Origin: Bdellovibrionales bacterium
Lineage (GTDB): Bacteria > Bdellovibrionota > Bdellovibrionia > Bdellovibrionales > UBA1609
Direction of reading: 5' to 3'
Length of the DNA stretch: 64,000 bases
NCBI GenBank assembly: GCA_041739415.1
Contig: JBGSNU010000025.1
Coordinates: 130,187 to 194,186 of the forward strand
Within the stretch, counting starts at the first letter, position 1, and each line of letters opens with the position of its first letter. Shown in pieces: positions 6,980-16,278 of the stretch. The translations under genes and the position numbers were made by a program. Under the pieces are notes generated by a model. The model did no database searches, was not told the origin of the DNA, and worked only from the letters and a program-made list of their open reading frames with translations.

Positions 6980-7303
6980 ATGATCCAGTCGGCGACTGAA
7001 ATTGTTCGCATTCCCTCAACTGAGCCCGAGCGCCTAGAGCGTGAGTGGGACGGCGTTGGTGAGTCGGCGGCGACTTCCGACCTCACCGATGATCAGAGTC
7101 AGGATGCCCTCCGGCGCTTTGCCCGGTTTATTCACAAAGAAGTTCCCAAGGCGAAGACTGAGTCTCAGCCGTTGGTTCTGGTGCCGTCTGTAGGCTCCGG
7201 GTCACCTTCCCGAATCCCTCAGGGCCTCGCCGCGTATCGCTTTCAACTGGAGCAGGCCCTGACTGAGTCTCACATCGGCTCGATGCTCAATACATCAGTC
7301 TAA
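6980..7303 (+). CDS. hypothetical acidic protein (weakly supported)
   Basis: ORF only. The GGAG lies only 2 nt from the ATG, which is poor spacing. No recognisable motif. Confidence 0.25.
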   Translation: MIQSATEIVRIPSTEPERLEREWDGVGESAATSDLTDDQSQDALRRFARFIHKEVPKAKTESQPLVLVPSVGSGSPSRIPQGLAAYRFQLEQALTESHIGSMLNTSV

Positions 7304-7335
7304 ACATTTACTTAACGCATAATATAAAAAATAGC

Positions 7336-7362
7336 TAAAGTAATAACGCGCAGCGACGATAA
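7336..7362 (+). promoter_or_regulatory. sigma28 (FliA)-type promoter upstream of flagellin 1
   Basis: TAAA (7336-7339), 15-nt spacer, GACGATAA (7355-7362). This compares with consensus TAAA-N15-GCCGATAA, giving 7 of 8 in the -10 element. Confidence 0.6.
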
Positions 7363-7480
7363 GCTTGGTGACTGCTGAAGTGACTTAGGTTTAAAGGCGT
7401 ATCTGTGGGCGCCATCAACCTCAATCGGAATCCGTGGACGTGGGAGTCTAGGGAGACCGTTATGGGGAGGGGAGGCTCAC

Positions 7481-8314
7481 GTGGCGTTTCGTATCTCGTC
7501 GAATTCTACGGCCTTGTCGGCTGGTCGGTTCTTGGAAAGAGCCCAGCGACAGGTCGATAAATCACTCCAATCACTAGCCTCCGGCTCTCGCATCGTGCGA
7601 GCGGGGGATGATGCCGCGGGCTTCGCTATATCTGAGAGCCTCCGCGGGCAAATTGCAGGAACTAAACAAGCGAAATTTAATACAGAATCAGCTGTGGGGC
7701 TGGTGCAAACGGCAGAGGGCGGGCTGAACGAGCAGAACAATATTCTGGTGCGGCTGCGTGAGTTGGGCGTGCAAGCCGCATCAGATACGATCGGTGATCA
7801 AGAGCGCGAGTACCTCAATCAAGAGTTCGTCGGACTCGTTGAGGAATTTGATCGGATCGCCAAGACCACGCGCTACGGGGCAAAGGAGCTGCTGACGGGC
7901 TCGGGGCAAGAGTATGAGTTTCAGGTTGGAGCGTTTAAGGGGCCAGAGAATGTCATTAGTTTCACTTTAGATGCGAACACCACCAGCAGTGATGTCGGTG
8001 TGGATGGACTTGAAATCACCTCGAAGAGTGAGGCGCGCGACTCTTTGGCCTCCATCGATGAAGCCATTGCTCATGTCTCTGGCACTCGAGCCACCTTTGG
8101 GGCGATGCAAAGCCGCCTGCAGCACGCCTCTGACGCACTCTCTGTTCAAGGCGAAAACTTGACCATCGCTCGAAGCCACATTGTGGATGTGGATGCGGCA
8201 GAAGAGGTTTCGAAATTGGCGCAGGCGCAAATTCAGCAGCAAGCCGGCGCGTCTGTAATAGGACAGGCCAACGTTTCTGCAGCCAAGGCTCTTCGACTTC
8301 TCGATCCTTACTAG
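7481..8314 (+). CDS. fliC: flagellin (short, D0/D1-only type), paralog 1
   Basis: Flagellin N-domain LASGSRIVRAGDDAAGFAISESLRGQI and C-domain ATFGAMQSRLQHA...AGASVIGQANVSAAKALRLL. GTG start is preceded by GGAGGGGAGG. Confidence 0.9.
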   Translation: MAFRISSNSTALSAGRFLERAQRQVDKSLQSLASGSRIVRAGDDAAGFAISESLRGQIAGTKQAKFNTESAVGLVQTAEGGLNEQNNILVRLRELGVQAASDTIGDQEREYLNQEFVGLVEEFDRIAKTTRYGAKELLTGSGQEYEFQVGAFKGPENVISFTLDANTTSSDVGVDGLEITSKSEARDSLASIDEAIAHVSGTRATFGAMQSRLQHASDALSVQGENLTIARSHIVDVDAAEEVSKLAQAQIQQQAGASVIGQANVSAAKALRLLDPY

Positions 8315-8327
8315 ACTTAACGCACTA

Positions 8328-8370
8328 CGCTAGATCGCCATTTGGGGTCTAGCGCAAAAAAAAATTTTTC
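8328..8370 (+). terminator. hairpin after flagellin 1 (possible terminator)
   Basis: CGCTAGA (8328-8334) pairs with TCTAGCG (8348-8354), followed by CAAAAAAAAATTTTT. The U-tract is not directly adjacent to the stem. Confidence 0.35.
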
Positions 8371-8419
8371 CTCATCCCCGCCTAATTCCGCCTACTAGAC
8401 GCGCCGCGCACAGCCGCGA

Positions 8420-8453
8420 CCTAGACCAAAGGCTAAAGCTTCCTAGACCAAAG
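8420..8453. repeat. 12-nt direct repeat CCTAGACCAAAG x2 bracketing a sigma28 -35 element
   Basis: Exact copies at 8420-8431 and 8442-8453, offset by 22 nt. The TAAA at 8434-8437 lies between them. Confidence 0.8.
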
Positions 8454-8460
8454 CCGAGAA
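8434..8460 (+). promoter_or_regulatory. sigma28-type promoter in the gap upstream of flagellin 2
   Basis: TAAA (8434-8437), 15-nt spacer, GCCGAGAA (8453-8460), which is 7 of 8 to GCCGATAA. It lies about 250 nt upstream of the fliC start. Confidence 0.55.
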
Positions 8461-8546
8461 GTTCTATGAACACGTTGGAGCTTCTTTAAGCAAAAGTTCA
8501 CTTCAGCAGTCACTGGAACTGAACTTCACTTCAAGATCATCCAGAT

Positions 8547-8574
8547 CCCGAGGGACAGTCACCCCTCGGGTTTT
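8547..8574 (+). terminator. intrinsic-terminator-like hairpin inside the flagellin-2 upstream region
   Basis: Perfect 8-bp GC-rich stem CCCGAGGG (8547-8554) / CCCTCGGG (8563-8570), 8-nt loop, then TTTT (8571-8574). Confidence 0.5.
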
Positions 8575-8713
8575 GGTACCTCCAATAAGTTAACAAAATT
8601 TATTAACCCGACAGGGATAGTCCTGTTCATTTCGTCAGCGCGCATTCATGCGTCGTGGGCGAGTGGGATGGACAGTGGTTCTAGGACTGGGACCAGTGCT
8701 TTAGGAGGCAATC

Positions 8714-9541
8714 ATGGGCTTAAGGATCAATACAAACGTCGCGTCAATTGGGGCGCAACGAGTTCTGTCCAAACAACAGGCGCGAATGGAACATGCGCAG
8801 TTAGCTATGTCCTCAGGATCACGAATCGTTAAAGCGGCGGATGATGCGGCCGGCTTGGCGATCTCTGAAAACATCCGAGGTCAGATCTCAGGTATCAAGA
8901 TGGCGCGAAACAACGCCTACAACGCTCAGTCACTCATTCAGGTGTCTGAAGGTGGATTAAACGAAATTAGTAATATCATGATTCGCTTGCGTGAACTTGG
9001 AGTGCAAGCCGCTTCAGACACCGTTAGTGATGTTGAGCGAAGCTTCCTCGATCAAGAAGCGCAGCAGTTGGTGGCAGAGAGCGATCGAATTGCCCGCTCC
9101 ACGCGCTTTGGTAACAAAGCCCTGCTCGACGGTTCAGGCGAGGAGATGGAATATCACGTTGGACCCTTCGCCGATGAGGAAGAGAACGTAATTAAATACA
9201 GTGTCTCGGCTGATGCGACGACAGACACCCTTGGACTTTCAGGGCTCTCGATTGCCGACAAAGGGGGAGCACGATCCACGCTCGAAGCCGTCGATCAAGG
9301 GTTGGTGTTGATCGGTCAAATGCGCGCTGACTTCGGTGCGGTTCAGTCCCGACTGCAAACCACAACGAGCAACTTAGACATTCAGTATGAAAATTTATCT
9401 GCTGCAAAATCTAGAATTTCAGATGCAGATATCGCTTACGAGAGTGCCGAAATGACTTCTGCGAACATTCTGCAGCAGGCGTCAGTCGGTGTTTTGGCTC
9501 AGGCCAATCAAAACGGCGCCTCGGCACTGCGACTGATTTAA
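8714..9541 (+). CDS. fliC: flagellin, paralog 2
   Basis: MGLRINTNVASIGAQR...SSGSRIVKAADDAAGLAISE... and C-terminal ADFGAVQSRLQ...VGVLAQANQNGASALRLI. RBS is AGGAGG. Confidence 0.9.
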   Translation: MGLRINTNVASIGAQRVLSKQQARMEHAQLAMSSGSRIVKAADDAAGLAISENIRGQISGIKMARNNAYNAQSLIQVSEGGLNEISNIMIRLRELGVQAASDTVSDVERSFLDQEAQQLVAESDRIARSTRFGNKALLDGSGEEMEYHVGPFADEEENVIKYSVSADATTDTLGLSGLSIADKGGARSTLEAVDQGLVLIGQMRADFGAVQSRLQTTTSNLDIQYENLSAAKSRISDADIAYESAEMTSANILQQASVGVLAQANQNGASALRLI

Positions 9542-9614
9542 CGCTCAATTTTTTATTTTTTAAGGATTTTAAGGACCGTGTTTGCCCACAGACTCACACG
9601 ACTCCTTGAGCCCG

Positions 9615-9648
9615 CCCTGGGGATACCCACACGCCCCAGGGTTTTTTT
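9615..9648 (+). terminator. rho-independent terminator after flagellin 2
   Basis: 8-bp stem CCCTGGGG (9615-9622) / CCCCAGGG (9634-9641) followed by T7 (9642-9648). It sits between convergent genes. Confidence 0.7.
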
Positions 9649-11341
9649 AAAGGTCACGCAAGTGTCTTTGAGCTGCGACTTGGTCCCGGTTGAGTTCAAG
9701 CGCTCGCAGAAAATGGGCCCGCGCTTTCTCACGCTGACCTTGCCCTAGCGCTGCTTCACCCAGCCCCACATATCCTAAATCCATCAACGGATTCAACTCC
9801 ACCACACGCTGAAACATTCGCTCGGCTTCCACAAAACGGTTTGCGGCAAGAAGAAGAGATCCGGCATTGTAGCGGGCAAAGATGTTGTTTGCATCCGTTT
9901 GCAAGGAAGCCTGCAAATACTCGAGCGCCTTCGTTTGATCGTAGCCCGAAAAATCAGCCTGCATATACAGAAATCCCAATTTTGATTGTACAGCCGCCCG
10001 CGCGACTTCTAATTTGACTAGATCCTCGAGCATTGTTTGAGCCGCGGCATATTCTTTTTTCACAAAATAGTGAGTAATCAAATTGAATTTAGCCCTCAGG
10101 TTTCGTGAATCATTGGCTATTGACTCCTGCCAAAGCAATGGTGTTGAGGCATAGACTTGGGTGCGCTGGCTCGAAAGATAAAACTGAGTTGCAACGGCGA
10201 GGGCTGTCAGCAGTAGACTAAACGCTCGCACGGCAGCCGACCTGCAGTCTAAAAAAAGTCCGACCAAACCAATAAATATCGGTGCCGTTGCCAGATACGA
10301 GCGGCGCTCTACAAAGAGGTCCACCGTCGGAAAAACGGAGCTGGTGGGCAACAGACAAAGTAGAAAAAACAGCCAGGCCCAACTTAGCCTCGCCCGAACA
10401 TTCAACACGGCCAGGAGTGTGAGTGTAACAACTGCGACCCACGCCAGAGACCGTGCGATGGGGGATAATTCGGTCGGCACAATGTAATGATCAATCGACA
10501 TACCTTGGGGCCAAAAAATGAGACCAAAATATTTTAGGATCATCAGCCCCTGAGCACTTAAGTACGCGAGTGCAGGGAATGTTGAGCCCTTACCCTCGAG
10601 ATCACCCAATTCACCAAAAAGTAAAAATCGGCAGACAAGATAGATGGCCGTGATGGACAGCACCGGCGCATACAGCTGCACCCGTTGCCACCGGGTTAAC
10701 CGCTCGGTCCTGATGAGGTCACACAAGACTAGCAGTGGCAGCACAATGACGGCGCTTTGCTTTGCAGTCAGTGCCAGCACATAGGTGAGGCACGCGGCAA
10801 CAGTAGTGGAGCGACGGTTTTGCAGAAGCAGCAGCAGTGTCAACAGAACGAAGAACGTGGTTAAAATATCGCTCAACGCAAAGGCGTAGAGCACGGTGCC
10901 TGCAACCACCGGCGCGGACAAAAACAGCAGAGCCGCGACAAACGCACCGACAGTTTGCACGCCTAAACCAAGGTTGGCGTAAAGCCAAAGCGCGAGGAGT
11001 GCCACGAGGCTTGCGACTCCGGCGTGAAGTGTCGTGCTTAGAGTATGGATCGCTCGATGGGGCTCAGTCGTGGACTGAATAGCCATCCAATACACAATGT
11101 AGACGAGTGGTCGCGAGGGGTCATTACGCAAAAAAGTTCGGTCGTGACTGTATGAAAAAATAAAATTCTGTAGCGAGAACTCGGTGACACGTAGGTCAGG
11201 GTTCTCTTGAATTTTAGCGAGGTCATCTAACACGAAGGGATTGTCCCAGCCGGGGGAATACAGCACAACGGTCGAAAGCCAAAGGAGCGGGAGCAAGAGC
11301 AGCTTTCGCTTGTTAAACAAATTGAGTATATAAGTGGTCAC
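9647..11341 (-). CDS. multi-pass membrane protein with C-terminal TPR repeats (TMTC/PMT-like GT-C candidate)
   Basis: About 10 or more hydrophobic helices, an N-proximal GWDNPFVLDDLAKIQENPDL motif as in bacterial TMTC-like TPR proteins, and a C-terminal ~170 aa of TPR-like helices (AERMFQRVVELNP, AHFLRALELNRD). GTG start. Confidence 0.6.
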   Translation of the reverse strand: MTTYILNLFNKRKLLLLPLLWLSTVVLYSPGWDNPFVLDDLAKIQENPDLRVTEFSLQNFIFSYSHDRTFLRNDPSRPLVYIVYWMAIQSTTEPHRAIHTLSTTLHAGVASLVALLALWLYANLGLGVQTVGAFVAALLFLSAPVVAGTVLYAFALSDILTTFFVLLTLLLLLQNRRSTTVAACLTYVLALTAKQSAVIVLPLLVLCDLIRTERLTRWQRVQLYAPVLSITAIYLVCRFLLFGELGDLEGKGSTFPALAYLSAQGLMILKYFGLIFWPQGMSIDHYIVPTELSPIARSLAWVAVVTLTLLAVLNVRARLSWAWLFFLLCLLPTSSVFPTVDLFVERRSYLATAPIFIGLVGLFLDCRSAAVRAFSLLLTALAVATQFYLSSQRTQVYASTPLLWQESIANDSRNLRAKFNLITHYFVKKEYAAAQTMLEDLVKLEVARAAVQSKLGFLYMQADFSGYDQTKALEYLQASLQTDANNIFARYNAGSLLLAANRFVEAERMFQRVVELNPLMDLGYVGLGEAALGQGQREKARAHFLRALELNRDQVAAQRHLRDL

Positions 11342-11764
11342 ACCTTGAAGCTAGCAGGTGCAGTCTAGGTGGGCAACGCGTCTTACGTCTGGCCTAGGTC
11401 TATAGGCCTAAGGTCGATCTTTTGCGGACCTCAGCTTTATCGACAAATGAAATGCAATTGCTCGTCGAAAGTCTAGTTTCATACAGACGATGGTCCAGTT
11501 TGCCTCGACTCGACTTTAGTTCGCCCGGACCTCGCCGAAAGGTTTGCATGTGCAAGCGGTCGATGGGTTTCAGGTGAAGTGAGAAGTTTAGTGTGGAGTG
11601 ACTGCCCGCTAAATCTTCGTTCGCAACTTCACTCAGAGTTCTTCAATCGCTCCAACGTGTTCAAAAACCCAATGCCGCAAGGATGCGTGCGCTCTTCAAC
11701 CCTCTGAGTAGGTCAGAGACGTAAGAGTAGACTGATGGATCGGTTACTACAAAAGGAGGACCCT

Positions 11765-12598
11765 ATGGGCCTTAGAGTAACTACGAATCTCGCGTCGATT
11801 TCGGCGCAACGGACAATGGCTAGCTCGCAACGTGAAATCCAAAAGAGCTTTTCGCAGCTCTCGAGCGGCAGTCGAATTACCAAAGCCGCGGACGATGCTG
11901 CCGGGCTATCTATAAGTGAAACTTTGAAGTCCACCATCCGTGGCTACGGGCAGGCGCAACGAAACGCCAATGACGGTATCTCCATGGTGCAAGTGTCTGA
12001 AGGTGGTTTGGGAGAAATCTCCAATATTCTCACTCGAATGCGAGAGCTCGGCGTGCAAGCCGCATCGGATACAGTGGGAGATGTGGAACGTGGATTTATT
12101 GACAAAGAAGTTCAGCAGCTGAAGAACGAAATGCAACGTATTGCCAAGACGACTCGCTGGGGAGACCAAGCTTTGCTAGACGGCTCAGGCCAGGAGTACG
12201 CCTTTCAGGTGGATATCAACAACGATGACTTTAACGATCGAATTGCTTTTGATGCGGCTCAACAGGATGCGACGATCGACACGCTTGGGGTCGCAGGCTT
12301 TAACTTCTCGGAGAAGTCCGATGCACGAGAGGCACTTGAAGTGCTTGAATCGGCGCAACGTCAAGTCAACGGCTACCGTGCCAATCTCGGGGCCATTCAA
12401 AACCGATTGATCTCTACGACAGAAAACCTAGGTGTGGCCATCGAGAACTTCTCGTCTGCGAATTCAAGAGTACGAGACACCGATGTCGCTCAAAGCTCAG
12501 CCGAACTGGCGCGCAATAATATTTTGATGAACGCCTCTGTTGGAGTGTTGGCTCAGGCCAATCAACAGCCGGCTTCAGCGCTGCGCCTTATTGGTTAA
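11765..12598 (+). CDS. fliC: flagellin, paralog 3
   Basis: Start is taken at internal ATG 11765 (MGLRVTTNLAS), preceded by AAAGGAGGA. Flagellin N and C domains are present. Highly similar to paralog 4. Confidence 0.9.
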   Translation: MGLRVTTNLASISAQRTMASSQREIQKSFSQLSSGSRITKAADDAAGLSISETLKSTIRGYGQAQRNANDGISMVQVSEGGLGEISNILTRMRELGVQAASDTVGDVERGFIDKEVQQLKNEMQRIAKTTRWGDQALLDGSGQEYAFQVDINNDDFNDRIAFDAAQQDATIDTLGVAGFNFSEKSDAREALEVLESAQRQVNGYRANLGAIQNRLISTTENLGVAIENFSSANSRVRDTDVAQSSAELARNNILMNASVGVLAQANQQPASALRLIG

Positions 12599-12676
12599 CT
12601 TTATATAGAACTGAAATATAGAATTCAAAAATTGGAATTAGGGAGAGGGACTCCTTTCTCTCCCGGTACCAACCTA

Positions 12677-12710
12677 CCCGAGCGGACACATTCTGCTCGG
12701 GGTACTTTGC
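12677..12710 (+). terminator. hairpin after flagellin 3 (possible terminator)
   Basis: 7-bp stem CCCGAGC (12677-12683) / GCTCGGG (12695-12701) followed by a weak T-containing tail GTACTTTGC. A second hairpin GGGAGAG/CTCTCCC lies at 12641-12664. Confidence 0.35.
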
Positions 12711-12868
12711 GACTCGGTTCAACCTTGACCATGAGCGAGTCGCCAAAGGTCTGAAGGCCCTAGGTCCTAAGACTATCTTTAAGTCCTGATTCTCCGCTCT
12801 TTCGTCCTGAAAATACGGACGTTCATCTAGTTTCACCTCTCCCTTTGTCTAGTTCTACTAGACGCGAC

Positions 12869-12895
12869 TAAAGACAATCCCAGACTCGTCGATAG
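12869..12895 (+). promoter_or_regulatory. sigma28-type promoter upstream of flagellin 4
   Basis: TAAA (12869-12872), 15-nt spacer, GTCGATAG (12888-12895), which is 6 of 8 to GCCGATAA. Confidence 0.55.
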
Positions 12896-12932
12896 GTTGG
12901 GTGCCAGCACGACACGACAAAAGGAGTAATTC

Positions 12933-13769
12933 ATGGGAATGCGAATCACGACAAACTTGGCTTCGATCAATGCACAGCGCTCGATGGCGGGATCACAGCG
13001 CGATATCAACAAGAGCTATGCCCAGTTGTCGTCAGGGAGTCGCATCACCAAATCTGCAGACGATGCCGCCGGCCTCTCAATAAGTGAATCCCTCAAGTCC
13101 ACCATTCGCGGCTATGGCCAGGCTCAACGCAACGCCAATGACGGGATGTCCATGGTGCAAGTGGCAGAGGGTGGACTTGGTGAAATCTCCAACATCCTCA
13201 CTCGCCTGAGAGAACTCGGCGTGCAAGCCGCATCCGACACAGTCGGCGATGTCGAACGCGGATTTATCAACAAAGAGGTGCAACAGCTCAAGGCGGAATC
13301 AGAGCGGATTGCGCAGTCGACGCGGTATGGGAAAACCAATCTGTTGGATGGAACCGGCGGCGATTTTCAGTTTCAAGTGGATATCAACAACGATGATTTT
13401 AAAGATCGCATCGGATTTGACTCCTCAGAGATTCGAGCCACAACGGAGGACTTGAACATTGCTGCATTTGACTTCTCTGATAAAAACGACGCTCGGCAGG
13501 CGCTAGAGGTTTTAGAGGACTCGCAGCGCATGGTGAATGGCTATCGTGCGTCGCTCGGGGCGATTCAAAATCGGTTGATCTCGACGACTGAAAATCTTGG
13601 AGTGTCGATCGAAAATTTTTCTGCCGCGAACTCACGCATTCGTGACACTGACATTGCACAAAGTTCGGCCGAGCTCTCTCGAAACTCGATTTTGATGAGT
13701 GCGTCTGTGGGTGTGTTGGCGCAGGCCAACCAGCAGCCCGCAGCGGCCTTACGTTTGATCGGTGGTTAA
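12933..13769 (+). CDS. fliC: flagellin, paralog 4
   Basis: MGMRITTNLASINAQR...SSGSRITKSADDAAGLSISE... and C-terminal ASLGAIQNRLI...VGVLAQANQQPAAALRLIGG. RBS is AAAGGAG. Confidence 0.9.
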   Translation: MGMRITTNLASINAQRSMAGSQRDINKSYAQLSSGSRITKSADDAAGLSISESLKSTIRGYGQAQRNANDGMSMVQVAEGGLGEISNILTRLRELGVQAASDTVGDVERGFINKEVQQLKAESERIAQSTRYGKTNLLDGTGGDFQFQVDINNDDFKDRIGFDSSEIRATTEDLNIAAFDFSDKNDARQALEVLEDSQRMVNGYRASLGAIQNRLISTTENLGVSIENFSAANSRIRDTDIAQSSAELSRNSILMSASVGVLAQANQQPAAALRLIGG

Positions 13770-13791
13770 GGCGGTGTTAGTCTGAGGGTCG

Positions 13792-16278
13792 ATGCCAATA
13801 GATCGACCTGTATTGCCCATTGACTGTAGACTTGAGGAGATCGCTGCCCTCATTGCGCGCTCCTCTCGTGTGATCTTGACCGCGGCACCTGGCACGGGCA
13901 AGACCACGCGAATTCCCCCAGCACTGCTTTCGGTGATCCCCGGTAAAATTGCTGTTCTTCAGCCGCGGCGGCTGGCTGCTGTTGCCGCATGTGAGCGCGT
14001 GGCGCAAGAGCAGGGTTGGCGGGTGGGTCAAGAGGTGGGCTACCAAGTTCGCTTTGAATCCAAAATCACATCAGCCACTCGACTGGTTTACATGACCGAT
14101 GCGTTAATGCTCCGGCGCTGGGTAGAAGACCTAGAGCTGAGTCAGTTCTCGTTGATCATTATTGATGAGCTGCACGAGCGCAATTTGCAGCAGGACCTCT
14201 TGCTCGGAGCCATCAAAGAGTTGCAGGAGCTCGGCGCTCCGATAAAATTGCTGTTGATGTCTGCCACTTTGGAATCTCAGGAGCTGCTGAATTTCTTGCC
14301 TGGTGGTGAATGGATAGATGTGGCGGGCGTGAGCTATCCACTCACCGTTCGTCACAGTACCACACCCTTGTCGTTGCAAACGGACTTTGCCTTTATTGAG
14401 CGTATTGTTGGTGCAGTCACAACGGCTTGTGCGGAAACACGTGGCGACGTGCTGGTGTTTTTGCCTGGGGTCGGAGAGATTCGCCGAGTGCAAGAAAAAT
14501 TAGAGTCCAACCGTCTCACTCGCCCGGTGTACCCACTGCATGGAACACTGTCGTTAGCCGAACAAGCCCAAGTGTTGGCCCCAAGTGAGAAACCCCGAGT
14601 GATTTTGTCAACCAATGTGGCTGAGGCCTCCGTGACCGTGCAAGGAGTGGATTTTGTGATCGACTCAGGCATCGCGCGCGTCTCCAATGTAAACTTGACC
14701 TCTGGCTTTTCAACTTTAGAACTTAAGCGGATCTCTTTGTTCAACGCTCGCCAACGGTCAGGTCGTGCCGCGCGTGAGAAAGCCGGAACCTGCTGGCGAC
14801 TTTGGACATCGCATGAAGAGGCCACACAAATTGAGCAGCAAGTTCCCGAATGCATGCGGACGGACCTGAGTGCGGCGTTGTTGCTGCTCGCCCATTCGGG
14901 GCTAAATGACTTTGCCGCGTTTGCCTGGCTCAGTCGGCCACCGGGTCGCTTGCTGGATCTTGCCATTCAGTATTTGCGAAGTCTCGGTGCGCTGGGCGGG
15001 GACAATCGATTGACCCCCTTTGGGCAAAGGCTGTTGCGGTTTCCACTGCCCCCTCGGCTAGCAGCAATGCTGTGTCTGGGTTACGACCCCGAGCTTGCGG
15101 CACGGGTGGCGGCCATTTTAAACGAGCGTGACTTTTTGACGGCAACTTCTACCACGCTCGATCAATGTGATGTCACCTTGCGTTTGCAGACTTTGGTTGA
15201 AGTCGAAAGGCGCGAGCGAGTGCCGGGAGTGAAAGTGCAACTGGCCCACTCCATTTTGCAAACGGCAGAGCAATTGCGGCGTTTGGGGGGAGCGACCGCA
15301 GATACACCTCCGGCACACGCGCGGTCGCTGAAACGCATGCTGCTGCTGACACATGCCGATCGACTTTGTCGTCGGCGGGGGGAAAGTGCAAGAGGTTTGA
15401 TGGTAGGAGGTCGAGGCGTTAAGTTGAGTGCCGAGACCACGGTGACTGAGCGAGAGTTTTTTATAGCTCTACAAGGAGTTGATCTGCCCGGGCAGAATGA
15501 GACCACCGTGAATCTGGCGTGCGGTCTCAACAAGAGTGAAGTTTGTGAAATGTTGGCGGATCACATTCAAGTGAGTGAGAAAATAGAATTTATTGAGTCT
15601 AAGGCCGCTTTTTATTGCTCGCGCGTGCGCTCAGTTTTTGGACTAGCGATCGACGAGCCCACATTGACTCCAGCCCCGCCTGAGCAAGTGCGAGAGCAGC
15701 TGGCCGAACTCTTGCTACAAAAGTGGATGTGGTTGGTCGATAAAAATCTGGCTCTTAAGAGCTGGATGGCTCGATGGGAGCAAATGTGTCAGGTCTCTCC
15801 CGATCTAACGGCCCACTTTGGTGAAGTGCAAATTGCCCAGACCTTGCAAATGGCGGCGTTCGGCAAAACGAAAGTGAGCGAGGTTGTCGATTCCGACCTC
15901 ATGCAGTTTTTGCGGTTGAATGTGCCACCTGAGGTGCTGAGTGTGGTGGATCGAGAGGCACCCACCCATTTTGTTGCACCCACTGGGCATGCCCATGTGA
16001 TTCAGTACACCAGTCATGGGCCGTTTGTGGAGGTTCGTCTACAAGAACTATTTGGTTTAGATGCTAGTCCAAAGCTTCTTTTTGGGAGTGTCCCATTGAG
16101 GTTTCATCTCCTCGCACCGAACTTTCGCCCCGTGCAGGTGACCTCGGATCTCGCAGGATTTTGGACTGGCGCTTATGTAGACGTCAGAAAAGAGCTCCGG
16201 ACTCGCTATCCTAAGCACTCCTGGCCGGAGAACCCTGCAACTGCTAAACCCGAAGCCAAGGGGCGACGCCGGGTTTGA
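13792..16278 (+). CDS. hrpB: ATP-dependent DEAH-box RNA helicase HrpB
   Basis: Helicase motifs APGTGKTT, IIDELHER, MSATLE, TNVAEASVTV and QRSGRAAR. The ~828-aa length and long C-terminal domain are typical of HrpB. Confidence 0.8.
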   Translation: MPIDRPVLPIDCRLEEIAALIARSSRVILTAAPGTGKTTRIPPALLSVIPGKIAVLQPRRLAAVAACERVAQEQGWRVGQEVGYQVRFESKITSATRLVYMTDALMLRRWVEDLELSQFSLIIIDELHERNLQQDLLLGAIKELQELGAPIKLLLMSATLESQELLNFLPGGEWIDVAGVSYPLTVRHSTTPLSLQTDFAFIERIVGAVTTACAETRGDVLVFLPGVGEIRRVQEKLESNRLTRPVYPLHGTLSLAEQAQVLAPSEKPRVILSTNVAEASVTVQGVDFVIDSGIARVSNVNLTSGFSTLELKRISLFNARQRSGRAAREKAGTCWRLWTSHEEATQIEQQVPECMRTDLSAALLLLAHSGLNDFAAFAWLSRPPGRLLDLAIQYLRSLGALGGDNRLTPFGQRLLRFPLPPRLAAMLCLGYDPELAARVAAILNERDFLTATSTTLDQCDVTLRLQTLVEVERRERVPGVKVQLAHSILQTAEQLRRLGGATADTPPAHARSLKRMLLLTHADRLCRRRGESARGLMVGGRGVKLSAETTVTEREFFIALQGVDLPGQNETTVNLACGLNKSEVCEMLADHIQVSEKIEFIESKAAFYCSRVRSVFGLAIDEPTLTPAPPEQVREQLAELLLQKWMWLVDKNLALKSWMARWEQMCQVSPDLTAHFGEVQIAQTLQMAAFGKTKVSEVVDSDLMQFLRLNVPPEVLSVVDREAPTHFVAPTGHAHVIQYTSHGPFVEVRLQELFGLDASPKLLFGSVPLRFHLLAPNFRPVQVTSDLAGFWTGAYVDVRKELRTRYPKHSWPENPATAKPEAKGRRRV

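Follow-up and report, generated by a model that had tools for sequence, protein, structure and literature searches.

The 5′ untranslated region (UTR) of a coding mRNA can double as a trans-acting pairing regulator, as is known in Listeria for the hly 5′ UTR, which acts with prsA2 mRNA, and for the SreA riboswitch, which acts on prfA (SreA is cited in PMC3627812). In E. coli, the sigma28-dependent, UTR-derived small RNAs (sRNAs) MotR, FliX, UhpU, and FlgO, reportedly described by Melamed et al. in 2023, are FliA-driven RNAs from flagellar UTRs that are said to pair with other flagellar mRNAs and to tune flagellum synthesis. In the antisense RNA pairs CopA/CopT and IS10 RNA-OUT/RNA-IN, a kissing loop is combined with tail pairing. 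Here we describe the leader of a flagellin gene, termed flagellin B, in a stretch of 64,000 nucleotides from a Bdellovibrionales bacterium (the window; GenBank assembly GCA_041739415.1, contig JBGSNU010000025.1, positions 130,187 to 194,186 of the forward strand). The 5′ part of this leader contains three co-evolving predicted contacts to the leaders of two paralogous flagellin genes, A and C, which are documented below as sequence, conservation, and covariation.

The closest described RNA is APsRNA3 of Bdellovibrio bacteriovorus HD100, the ortholog of this 5′ segment, which is produced from the FliA promoter of the B-type gene fliC1 (Bd0604) and is specific to attack phase (14,726 reads per kilobase per million [RPKM], against 77 in growth phase). 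It was published as a coordinate and a fold picture (561,854-561,981, + strand; 128 nt; "FliA promoter: yes"), as an independent sRNA without targets or function (Karunker et al. 2013, PMC3627812). No later mention of APsRNA3, and no report of flagellin mRNAs linked by base pairing, was found in the literature searched. The leader described here offers a candidate function and candidate targets for this orphan sRNA of 2013.

The window holds four flagellin genes, A (7481-8314), B (8714-9541), C (11766-12598), and D (12933-13769), and the whole genome holds seven. Flagellin B encodes a 275-amino-acid protein with Pfam Flagellin_N and Flagellin_C domains. Its B. bacteriovorus ortholog is fliC1 (63% identity), and the nearest B. 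bacteriovorus relative of flagellins C and D is fliC2 (Bd0606). An earlier interpretation made from the letters alone (the sequence-only reading) had placed the start of "fliC2" at 8714. An ATG at this position does open a flagellin, but the name has to be changed to that of the fliC1 ortholog.

A repeat search identified two perfect inverted matches that tie the flagellin B leader to the leaders of A and C (the promoter and leader elements of A, B, and C are on the + strand). Positions 8467-8481 match 11649-11663 (15/15), and positions 8498-8513 match 7368-7383 (16/16). The first match lies in box1 (UGAACACGUUGGAGCU, 8467-8482), which is complementary to a segment of the C leader, anti-box1 (GCUCCAACGUGUUCA, 11648-11663), located ~100 nt ahead of the start codon of flagellin C, with a CsrA-type hairpin (11676-11687) close on its 3′ side. 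The second lies in box2, which is carried by a hairpin, HP1 (8494-8524; stem 8496-8500 with 8520-8524), and is complementary over 8494-8515 to the 5′ tail of the flagellin A mRNA (GUGACUGCUGAAGUGACUUAGG, 7368-7389), a segment predicted to be unpaired within its own leader. Since 7368-7383 directly follows the sigma28-type promoter of flagellin A (TAAA-N15-GACGATAA, 7336-7362, read from the sequence and kept in A-type leaders), the partner of box2 would be the 5′ end of the A mRNA. The third contact joins two hairpin loops, that of HP2 in the B leader (8541-8576; 14-bp stem and 8-nt loop ACAGUCAC at 8555-8562) and that of a C-leader hairpin (11586-11614; loop AGUGACUG at 11597-11604), which lies ~47 nt 5′ of anti-box1. 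The C-leader loop complements both the loop of HP2 (CAGUCAC with GUGACUG) and box2, and its hairpin combines varying stems with a constant loop in 30+ genomes.

The complementarity is specific at the genome level. In the 3.35-Mb genome at 0 mismatches, each box has exactly two copies, the box itself and its flagellin-leader partner; box2 has one additional 1-mismatch near-match, outside a flagellar context. When 8467-8585 was compared with the genome by short-word BLAST, the two antisense matches were the top non-self hits. Neither box is present in the leaders of the remaining three flagellin genes (contig:position C13:62368, C33:13248, and C33:17201); these leaders are unrelated and carry AAGGAC hairpins that resemble CsrA sites. 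Near-matches to the boxes at C4:11095, C17:71345, and C7:55245 were taken as chance because no flagellin gene or recognizable flagellar context accompanies them.

Cognate pairs were tabulated from 20-kb regions around the B leader of 60 genomes, in which flagellin genes and boxes were located. RNAduplex applied to whole leaders produced giant nonspecific duplexes with z-scores near 0 to −2.4, and covariation counts were used instead. For box2 and the 5′ end of A (21 genomes), 87.9% of the table cells were paired compared to 24-43% in slid controls, and 13 of 22 pairs were changed on both sides (51 cells), a result reached by 0/500 shuffles. The matched changes can be read directly: the window has CACUUCAG with CUGAAGUG, most relatives have CAUUUCAG with CUGAAAUG, genome L026 has CAAUUCAG with CUGAAUUG, and L028 has CGUUUCAG with CUGAAACG, while the flank in L040 is wholly different and complementarity is retained. 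For box1 and the C leader (29 genomes), 84.5% of the cells were paired compared to 28-38% in slid controls, with 8 pairs changed on both sides. The core of this contact (pairs 3-13) contains zero unpaired cells, and its one-sided changes are all GC to GU; three compensatory box1/anti-box1 pairs are found in L026, a genome of the same genus as the window. At the loops, an HP2 loop of CAAUCAC is matched by a cognate C loop of GUGAUUG in two families: the combination is present in L176 (family f9) and in HD100 and two further Bdellovibrio genomes. L203, also a Bdellovibrio genome, retains CAGUCAC with GUGACUG, so that both loop states occur within one genus. Distinct compensatory changes were found in at least eight lineages. 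As would be expected of a base-pairing RNA, the trans complementarity exceeds chance and compensatory evolution of regulator and target is seen. We consider it probable that the flagellin B leader is a dual-function 5′ UTR that pairs with other flagellin mRNAs and is followed by CsrA-type sites, and we infer that pairing takes place in the cell, where it would couple flagellin gene expression or regulate translation or stability.

In the window, the boxes are inverted repeats flanking 8467-11663, and other clear DNA motifs (CTAGACC repeats and ACTAGACGCG) are present at these promoters, as they might be if the boxes were DNA elements, either regulator sites in both orientations or the inverted repeats of an inversion switch around flagellin B. 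We regard this explanation as highly improbable. The one-sided changes in the box1/C core are all G-U compatible, a property that is relevant only in RNA, and in L039, where the B and C genes are on opposite strands, the boxes are direct repeats on DNA and are still complementary as RNAs; both observations argue for RNA pairing over a shared DNA site. Moreover, the flanks vary freely with complementarity kept, the spacing between boxes runs from ~1.3 kb upward, and several genomes have no partner gene within the 20 kb fetched. Each loop is presented by an RNA hairpin, and the stems of the two hairpins (B and C) covary independently and are unrelated to each other, which argues also against gene conversion or homogenization of an inverted duplication.

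The geometry of the contacts is collinear and antiparallel: the 5′ tail and loop of B face the loop and downstream single strand of C. As in CopA/CopT and RNA-OUT/RNA-IN, a 7-nt loop-loop complementarity of two hairpins accompanies a longer single-strand duplex, and pairing by the 5′ end of one RNA extends into the loop and stem of its partner. Those antisense pairs are cis-encoded on opposite strands of one locus, whereas flagellins A, B, and C are separate loci, with complementarity kept by selection only. The B leader would be a case in nature of mRNAs from separate loci that control one another by kissing contacts in the antisense style. The E. coli RNAs MotR, FliX, UhpU, and FlgO have no sequence or structure relation to the B module. 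They are Hfq-dependent and use short seeds, whereas the predicted partners of the B module are paralogous flagellin leaders, contacted through 13-21-bp duplexes plus a loop-loop contact. The Listeria hly UTR and SreA likewise involve other organisms, genes, and structures and show no homology to it.

The flagellin B 5′ UTR comprises ~246 nt (8468-8713) and is conserved end to end. Transcription is predicted to begin at 8468 (range, 8468-8472), an estimate based on the published 5′ end of APsRNA3 and on HD100 Bd0606, where 7 nt separate the −10 element from the mapped start. In the alignment, the order of elements is a sigma28 promoter with CTAGACC repeats, box1 (UGAACACGUUGGAGC, near-invariant), box2 (UUCAGCAGUCAC) in HP1, HP2, a CUCCAA tail, an A/U-rich linker, GGA hairpins, and the Shine-Dalgarno sequence. 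In the window, the tail is UACCUCCAAU (8577-8586), the linker is a single-stranded stretch between the 5′ module and the translation-control half (8587-8609), and the Shine-Dalgarno sequence AGGAGGC and the ATG occupy 8703-8716 (read from the sequence and the gene call). A 421-nt query spanning the gap (8300-8720) matched 17/17 same-genus genomes and many from other families of the order. With a shorter query of 106 nt (8415-8520), matches were obtained in 75 of the 161 genomes sampled from the order, and these represented 51 of 73 genera. At every locus examined, the match preceded a B-type flagellin gene. A small open reading frame, ATGAACACGTTGGAGCTTCTTTAA (8466-8489; 7 codons and a stop), was rejected because it has no Shine-Dalgarno sequence and the linker that follows box1 varies by indels not divisible by three.

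No Rfam 15 family matched the window at its gathering score, and none relevant was found at an E value of ≤1 in 7300-11800. A covariance model built from the 5′ module and run on 151 genomes of the phylum matched 10, all inside the order and none in families f14-f33; the model has limited sensitivity, as it misses Bdellovibrio sensu stricto, and does not establish absence elsewhere. An exact scan of all genome contigs (596 Gb) with a 15-mer, a pattern too short for this purpose, returned mostly chance matches in unrelated phyla, and the matches with a flagellin gene nearby were in Bdellovibrionales and Pseudobdellovibrionaceae records only. The leader module would represent an RNA element outside Rfam that spans an order of predatory bacteria.

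The sequence-only reading had drawn attention to an 8-bp hairpin followed by TTTT at 8547-8574 and had suggested that it either ends a short sRNA or is a conditional terminator or structural element in the flagellin leader. The hairpin is present as described, with CCCGAGGG (8547-8554), loop ACAGTCAC, CCCTCGGG (8563-8570), and TTTT (8571-8574), and is the strongest terminator-like match in 7000-14000. Its GC-rich stem and four U's pass a simple terminator scan, and it sits within a long leader, where a conditional intrinsic terminator (attenuator) could gate transcription into the flagellin gene. After the 8 perfect pairs, the window reads UUUUGG, and the U's also fall within a longer stem of 14 pairs with one mismatch (8541-8554 with 8563-8576), where they pair with an upstream CCAAA; since this stem extends to 8576, the T-run is inside its 3′ arm. 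In relatives, the bases past the inner stem are UUUGGAG, UCCGGAG, ACUGGAG, or GGCGGAG, the partner upstream is CUCCAAA, CUCCGGA, or similar, and the helix reaches ~16 bp with the T-run as part of its 3′ arm. Distant lineages have an HP2 tail without a U-run (GCCUCC, UGCGAG, AACUUAG, and similar).

Across 33 genomes, all 14 stem pairs of HP2 covary. In this set, 84.8% of the cells were paired compared to 41-56% with the partner slid, and 0/500 shuffles reached the observed value; because hairpins entered the set only with at least 8/14 flanking bases complementary, the paired percentage is biased upward. The stem is wholly different between lineages, and the loop, (N)CAGUCAC, is invariant except for one G-to-A change, so that the constant part of the hairpin is the loop and not the tail. 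In addition, an alternative antiterminator helix was not found for the leader, and read-through in HD100 is roughly 80% as judged from RPKM. An attenuator is therefore improbable, and the proposed conserved terminator function finds no support, with the T-run absent in many relatives and the corresponding bases extending the helix. By its pattern of covariation, HP2 is a loop-presenting (putatively kissing) hairpin within a conserved ~115-nt module and not a conserved terminator.

The data from HD100 bear on whether the module is a separate RNA. The printed APsRNA3 sequence corresponds to the 5′ module of the Bd0604 leader, starting within box1 and taking in the loop hairpin and the CUCCAA tail; this Bdellovibrio version differs from that of the window in having no box2 and a CAAUCAC loop. 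In the HD100 genome (NC_005363), Bd0604 occupies 562,130-562,954 and Bd0606 occupies 564,214-565,047. The start of Bd0606, the C-type gene fliC2, was mapped at 564,050 with a FliA motif (PMC3627812), which places the C loop hairpin and anti-box1 inside a real 5′ UTR. A free-standing sigma28-dependent sRNA of ~105-125 nt could be the main product of the B promoter, terminated or processed right behind the hairpin, with the flagellin gene served by incidental read-through; APsRNA3 was listed after intergenic signals continuous with the downstream gene had been discarded (PMC3627812), UUUU follows the hairpin in the window, and the closed fold is succeeded by an A/U-rich linker that is a plausible RNase cleavage zone. 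We nevertheless judge this unlikely. Many relatives have no U-run, and conservation of the leader continues to the Shine-Dalgarno sequence. APsRNA3 is just 1.2× as abundant as the fliC1 coding region (11,984 RPKM), for which the promoter table gives no separate 5′ end (PMC3627812). Its 3′ end, like the other published sRNA 3′ ends, was estimated from coverage only (PMC3627812) and falls in the A/U-rich linker.

To us, the HD100 data point to a leader from which cleavage may additionally release a 5′ module that accumulates; they are not proof of a terminated sRNA. Of the two options left by the sequence-only reading, the data agree better with a structural element of a flagellin leader of ~250 nt: conservation reaches the Shine-Dalgarno sequence, HD100 fliC1 has no other mapped 5′ end, and its 5′ segment is about as abundant as its coding region. 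The sRNA option keeps some ground, since the ~115-128-nt segment has an HD100 ortholog that was published as an attack-phase sRNA under a FliA promoter (PMC3627812). Covariation across related genomes, proposed there as a check on the gap, was found both in the HP2 stem and in the trans contacts. A second published RNA of HD100 (L207), APsRNA4 (562,984-563,081), lies immediately 3′ of the fliC1 stop codon and is probably a 3′-UTR fragment of the B-type flagellin mRNA.

The first ~115 nt of the leader (8468-8586) would fold as a separate module made of a closing helix P1, HP1 carrying box2, and HP2 displaying the CAGUCAC loop. P1 can form between GUUGGAG (8474-8480), the 3′ half of box1, and CUCCAAU (8580-8586) in the tail. 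Tail and box1 have changed together in several lineages (GAAG/CUUC, GGAAG/CUUCC, GGCGG/UCGCC, and GGGACA/UGUCCC); 77.8% of P1 cells were paired compared to 26-54% in slid controls, and 9 cells had double changes, a number reached by 1/500 shuffles. The tail has a second predicted partner. In an alifold analysis of 12 same-genus leaders, a GCCUCC tail, with the anti-Shine-Dalgarno (anti-SD) sequence CCUCC, was predicted to pair with the Shine-Dalgarno sequence GGAGGC, and in many lineages the Shine-Dalgarno region is GUUGGAGG, mimicking box1. Since the tail can pair with either box1 or the Shine-Dalgarno sequence, these pairings suggest a switch, in which box1 occupied in trans would free the tail to close the Shine-Dalgarno sequence.

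We propose that the module acts as a base-pairing RNA toward two paralogous flagellin mRNAs, A and C. Box1 and the HP2 loop would pair with the single-stranded box and the hairpin loop of the C leader, forming a kissing loop plus tail pairing, and box2 would pair with the extreme 5′ end of the flagellin A mRNA. In the version that we prefer, and hold with low confidence, P1 would open once the C leader has bound box1, and the CCUCC tail, set free in this way, would mask the Shine-Dalgarno sequence of B. A duplex between the 5′ ends of A and B might alter the decay of both mRNAs, and together these events could couple the output of flagellins that are neighbors in the filament; here too, our confidence is low. 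Of two plausible kinds of outcome, we mildly favor the first, in which translation would be switched by way of P1 and the anti-SD sequence or 5′ ends would be protected from decay; in the second, RNase III would co-degrade the 16-21-bp duplexes. The pairing of FasX with ska is a precedent for protecting an mRNA 5′ end from decay.

In HD100, the filament is built in the order FliC3, FliC5, FliC1 (large amount), FliC2 (small amount), and FliC6 (PMC2791853). Since FliC2 comes after FliC1, the B-type and C-type pairing partners are neighbors in the filament, and pairing by the B leader may help to set flagellin order. A more elaborate possibility, which we hold only tentatively and think somewhat doubtful, is an RNA-RNA relay from A to B to C that orders the flagellins along the filament, with binding of box1 by the fliC2-type leader shutting off fliC1-type translation. 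Under such a relay, the cell would pass from each flagellin to its successor, and this would set their order in the tapered filament of the Bdellovibrio type. Many bacteria assemble one filament from several flagellins in a fixed order, and a co-evolving contact between leaders would be a concrete, testable mechanism for ordering them.

Several points weigh against a dual-function leader of this kind. Because box1 and the core of box2 vary so little, invariance and not covariation accounts for part of the signal. Related genomes are not independent, and the cell counts overstate the number of independent events; for HP2, the upward bias of the selected set is to be added. The contact between box2 and A is not seen in the leaders of Bdellovibrio sensu stricto that were read and so is not universal. 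Support for P1 is moderate, its 4 pairs changed on both sides being reached by 39/500 shuffles. Finally, the 5′ end of APsRNA3 is 4-5 nt inside box1, which would shorten the box1 duplex if it were the sole start.

The distal half of the leader (8610-8713) looks like a flagellin leader half controlled by CsrA and FliW. A GGA hairpin of CsrA type, GACAGGGAUAGUC (8610-8622), is conserved in the alignment, and its counterpart in relatives, GACAGGGAUGUC, is close to the consensus ACARGGAUGU obtained for CsrA by systematic evolution of ligands by exponential enrichment (SELEX). The CsrA pattern fits at three putative sites, which are conserved: GACAGGGAU(A)GUC in 8610-8622, a hairpin with a UAGGA loop at 8677-8694 (GGUUC-UAGGACUG-GGACC, with the GGA in the loop and a covarying stem in alifold), and AGGAGG at the ribosome site (8703-8708). 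Adjacent csrA (PF02599, 90.6 bits) and fliW (PF02623, 126.3 bits) genes lie on the same contig as the window, near the flagellin cluster, ~6.5 kb before the start of the window (C49:123553-124288) and ~15 kb upstream of the first CsrA-type site. CsrA of B. bacteriovorus represses the B. subtilis flagellin (hag) leader in a heterologous assay (PMC13443453). The hag leader with CsrA and FliW (Yakhnin 2007 and Mukherjee 2011, as cited in PMC13443453) is alike in being a flagellin 5′ leader with a GGA hairpin and a GGA in the Shine-Dalgarno sequence, in a genome that has csrA and fliW. The likeness extends to the distal half only (8610-8713); the hag leader is not known to have a counterpart of the 5′ pairing module.

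Upstream of the leader, TAAA (8434-8437), a 15-nt spacer, and GCCGAGAA (8453-8460) are read in the sequence. The pattern TAAA-N14-16-GCCGANAA has a single match in the 64-kb window, against 0.11 expected from shuffles. The −10 element GCCGAGAA agrees with the sigma28 −10 sequence GCCGATAA at 7/8 positions, and the −35 element TAAA and the 15-nt spacer also fit. In the alignment, the promoter is kept across the order, with TCGATAAG as the −10 element in some relatives, and the HD100 ortholog carries the entry "FliA promoter: yes." The sigma28-type promoter that the sequence-only reading had named here (TAAA-N15-GCCGAGAA, 8434-8460) is thus borne out, and we take it to be the FliA (sigma28) promoter of flagellin B, with dependence on fliA predicted. 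Its remark that a second convincing promoter could not be found between 8575 and 8713 also holds: a sequence scan found no sigma70-like site in this interval, and the HD100 ortholog has no other 5′ end among 140 published attack-phase promoters. The flagellin C promoter (CTTTAG-N14-GCCGAAAG, 11514-11541) is conserved, and the HD100 Bd0606 start with its FliA motif maps to the same place.

Two direct repeats of CCTAGACCAAAG, found by the repeat search, bracket the −35 element of flagellin B (8420-8453); they read CTrGACCwwrG in aligned relatives and are probably a DNA-level regulator site. The motif ACTAGACGCG lies further 5′ (8394-8403), is conserved in the alignment of relatives, has 3 copies only in the 3.35-Mb genome, and recurs upstream of the flagellin D promoter (12857-12866). 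Repeats of the CTAGACC/GGTCTAG type occur at flagellin promoters here and in relatives (8394-8453, 12857-12866, and 5′ of C at 11360-11520), and their Bdellovibrio counterpart is many copies of TGGTCTAG/CTGGACC. Together with ACTAGACGCG, these repeats look like putative sites for some DNA-binding regulator. On the 5′ side of these motifs, a hairpin formed by CGCTAGATC and GGTCTAGCG and followed by C-A9-T5 (8328-8369) lies 14 nt past the flagellin A stop codon. It is likely the end of the flagellin A transcript, which would make the flagellin B promoter independent.

The leaders of A and C have conserved structures of their own. In A-type leaders (7400-7495), the GUG start codon is part of GGUGCUCACGUGGC; this segment pairs with a conserved GUCUGUGGGCGC in a long-range helix that would hide the codon. 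A motif similar to the A-leader element, CUGUGGGCG, is found in the B leader at 8653-8661. The C-type leader (11676-11725) has a conserved, CsrA-like CGCAAGGAUGCG hairpin at 11676-11687 and, at 11700-11723, a hairpin with a covarying stem and the invariant loop GAGUAGGU.

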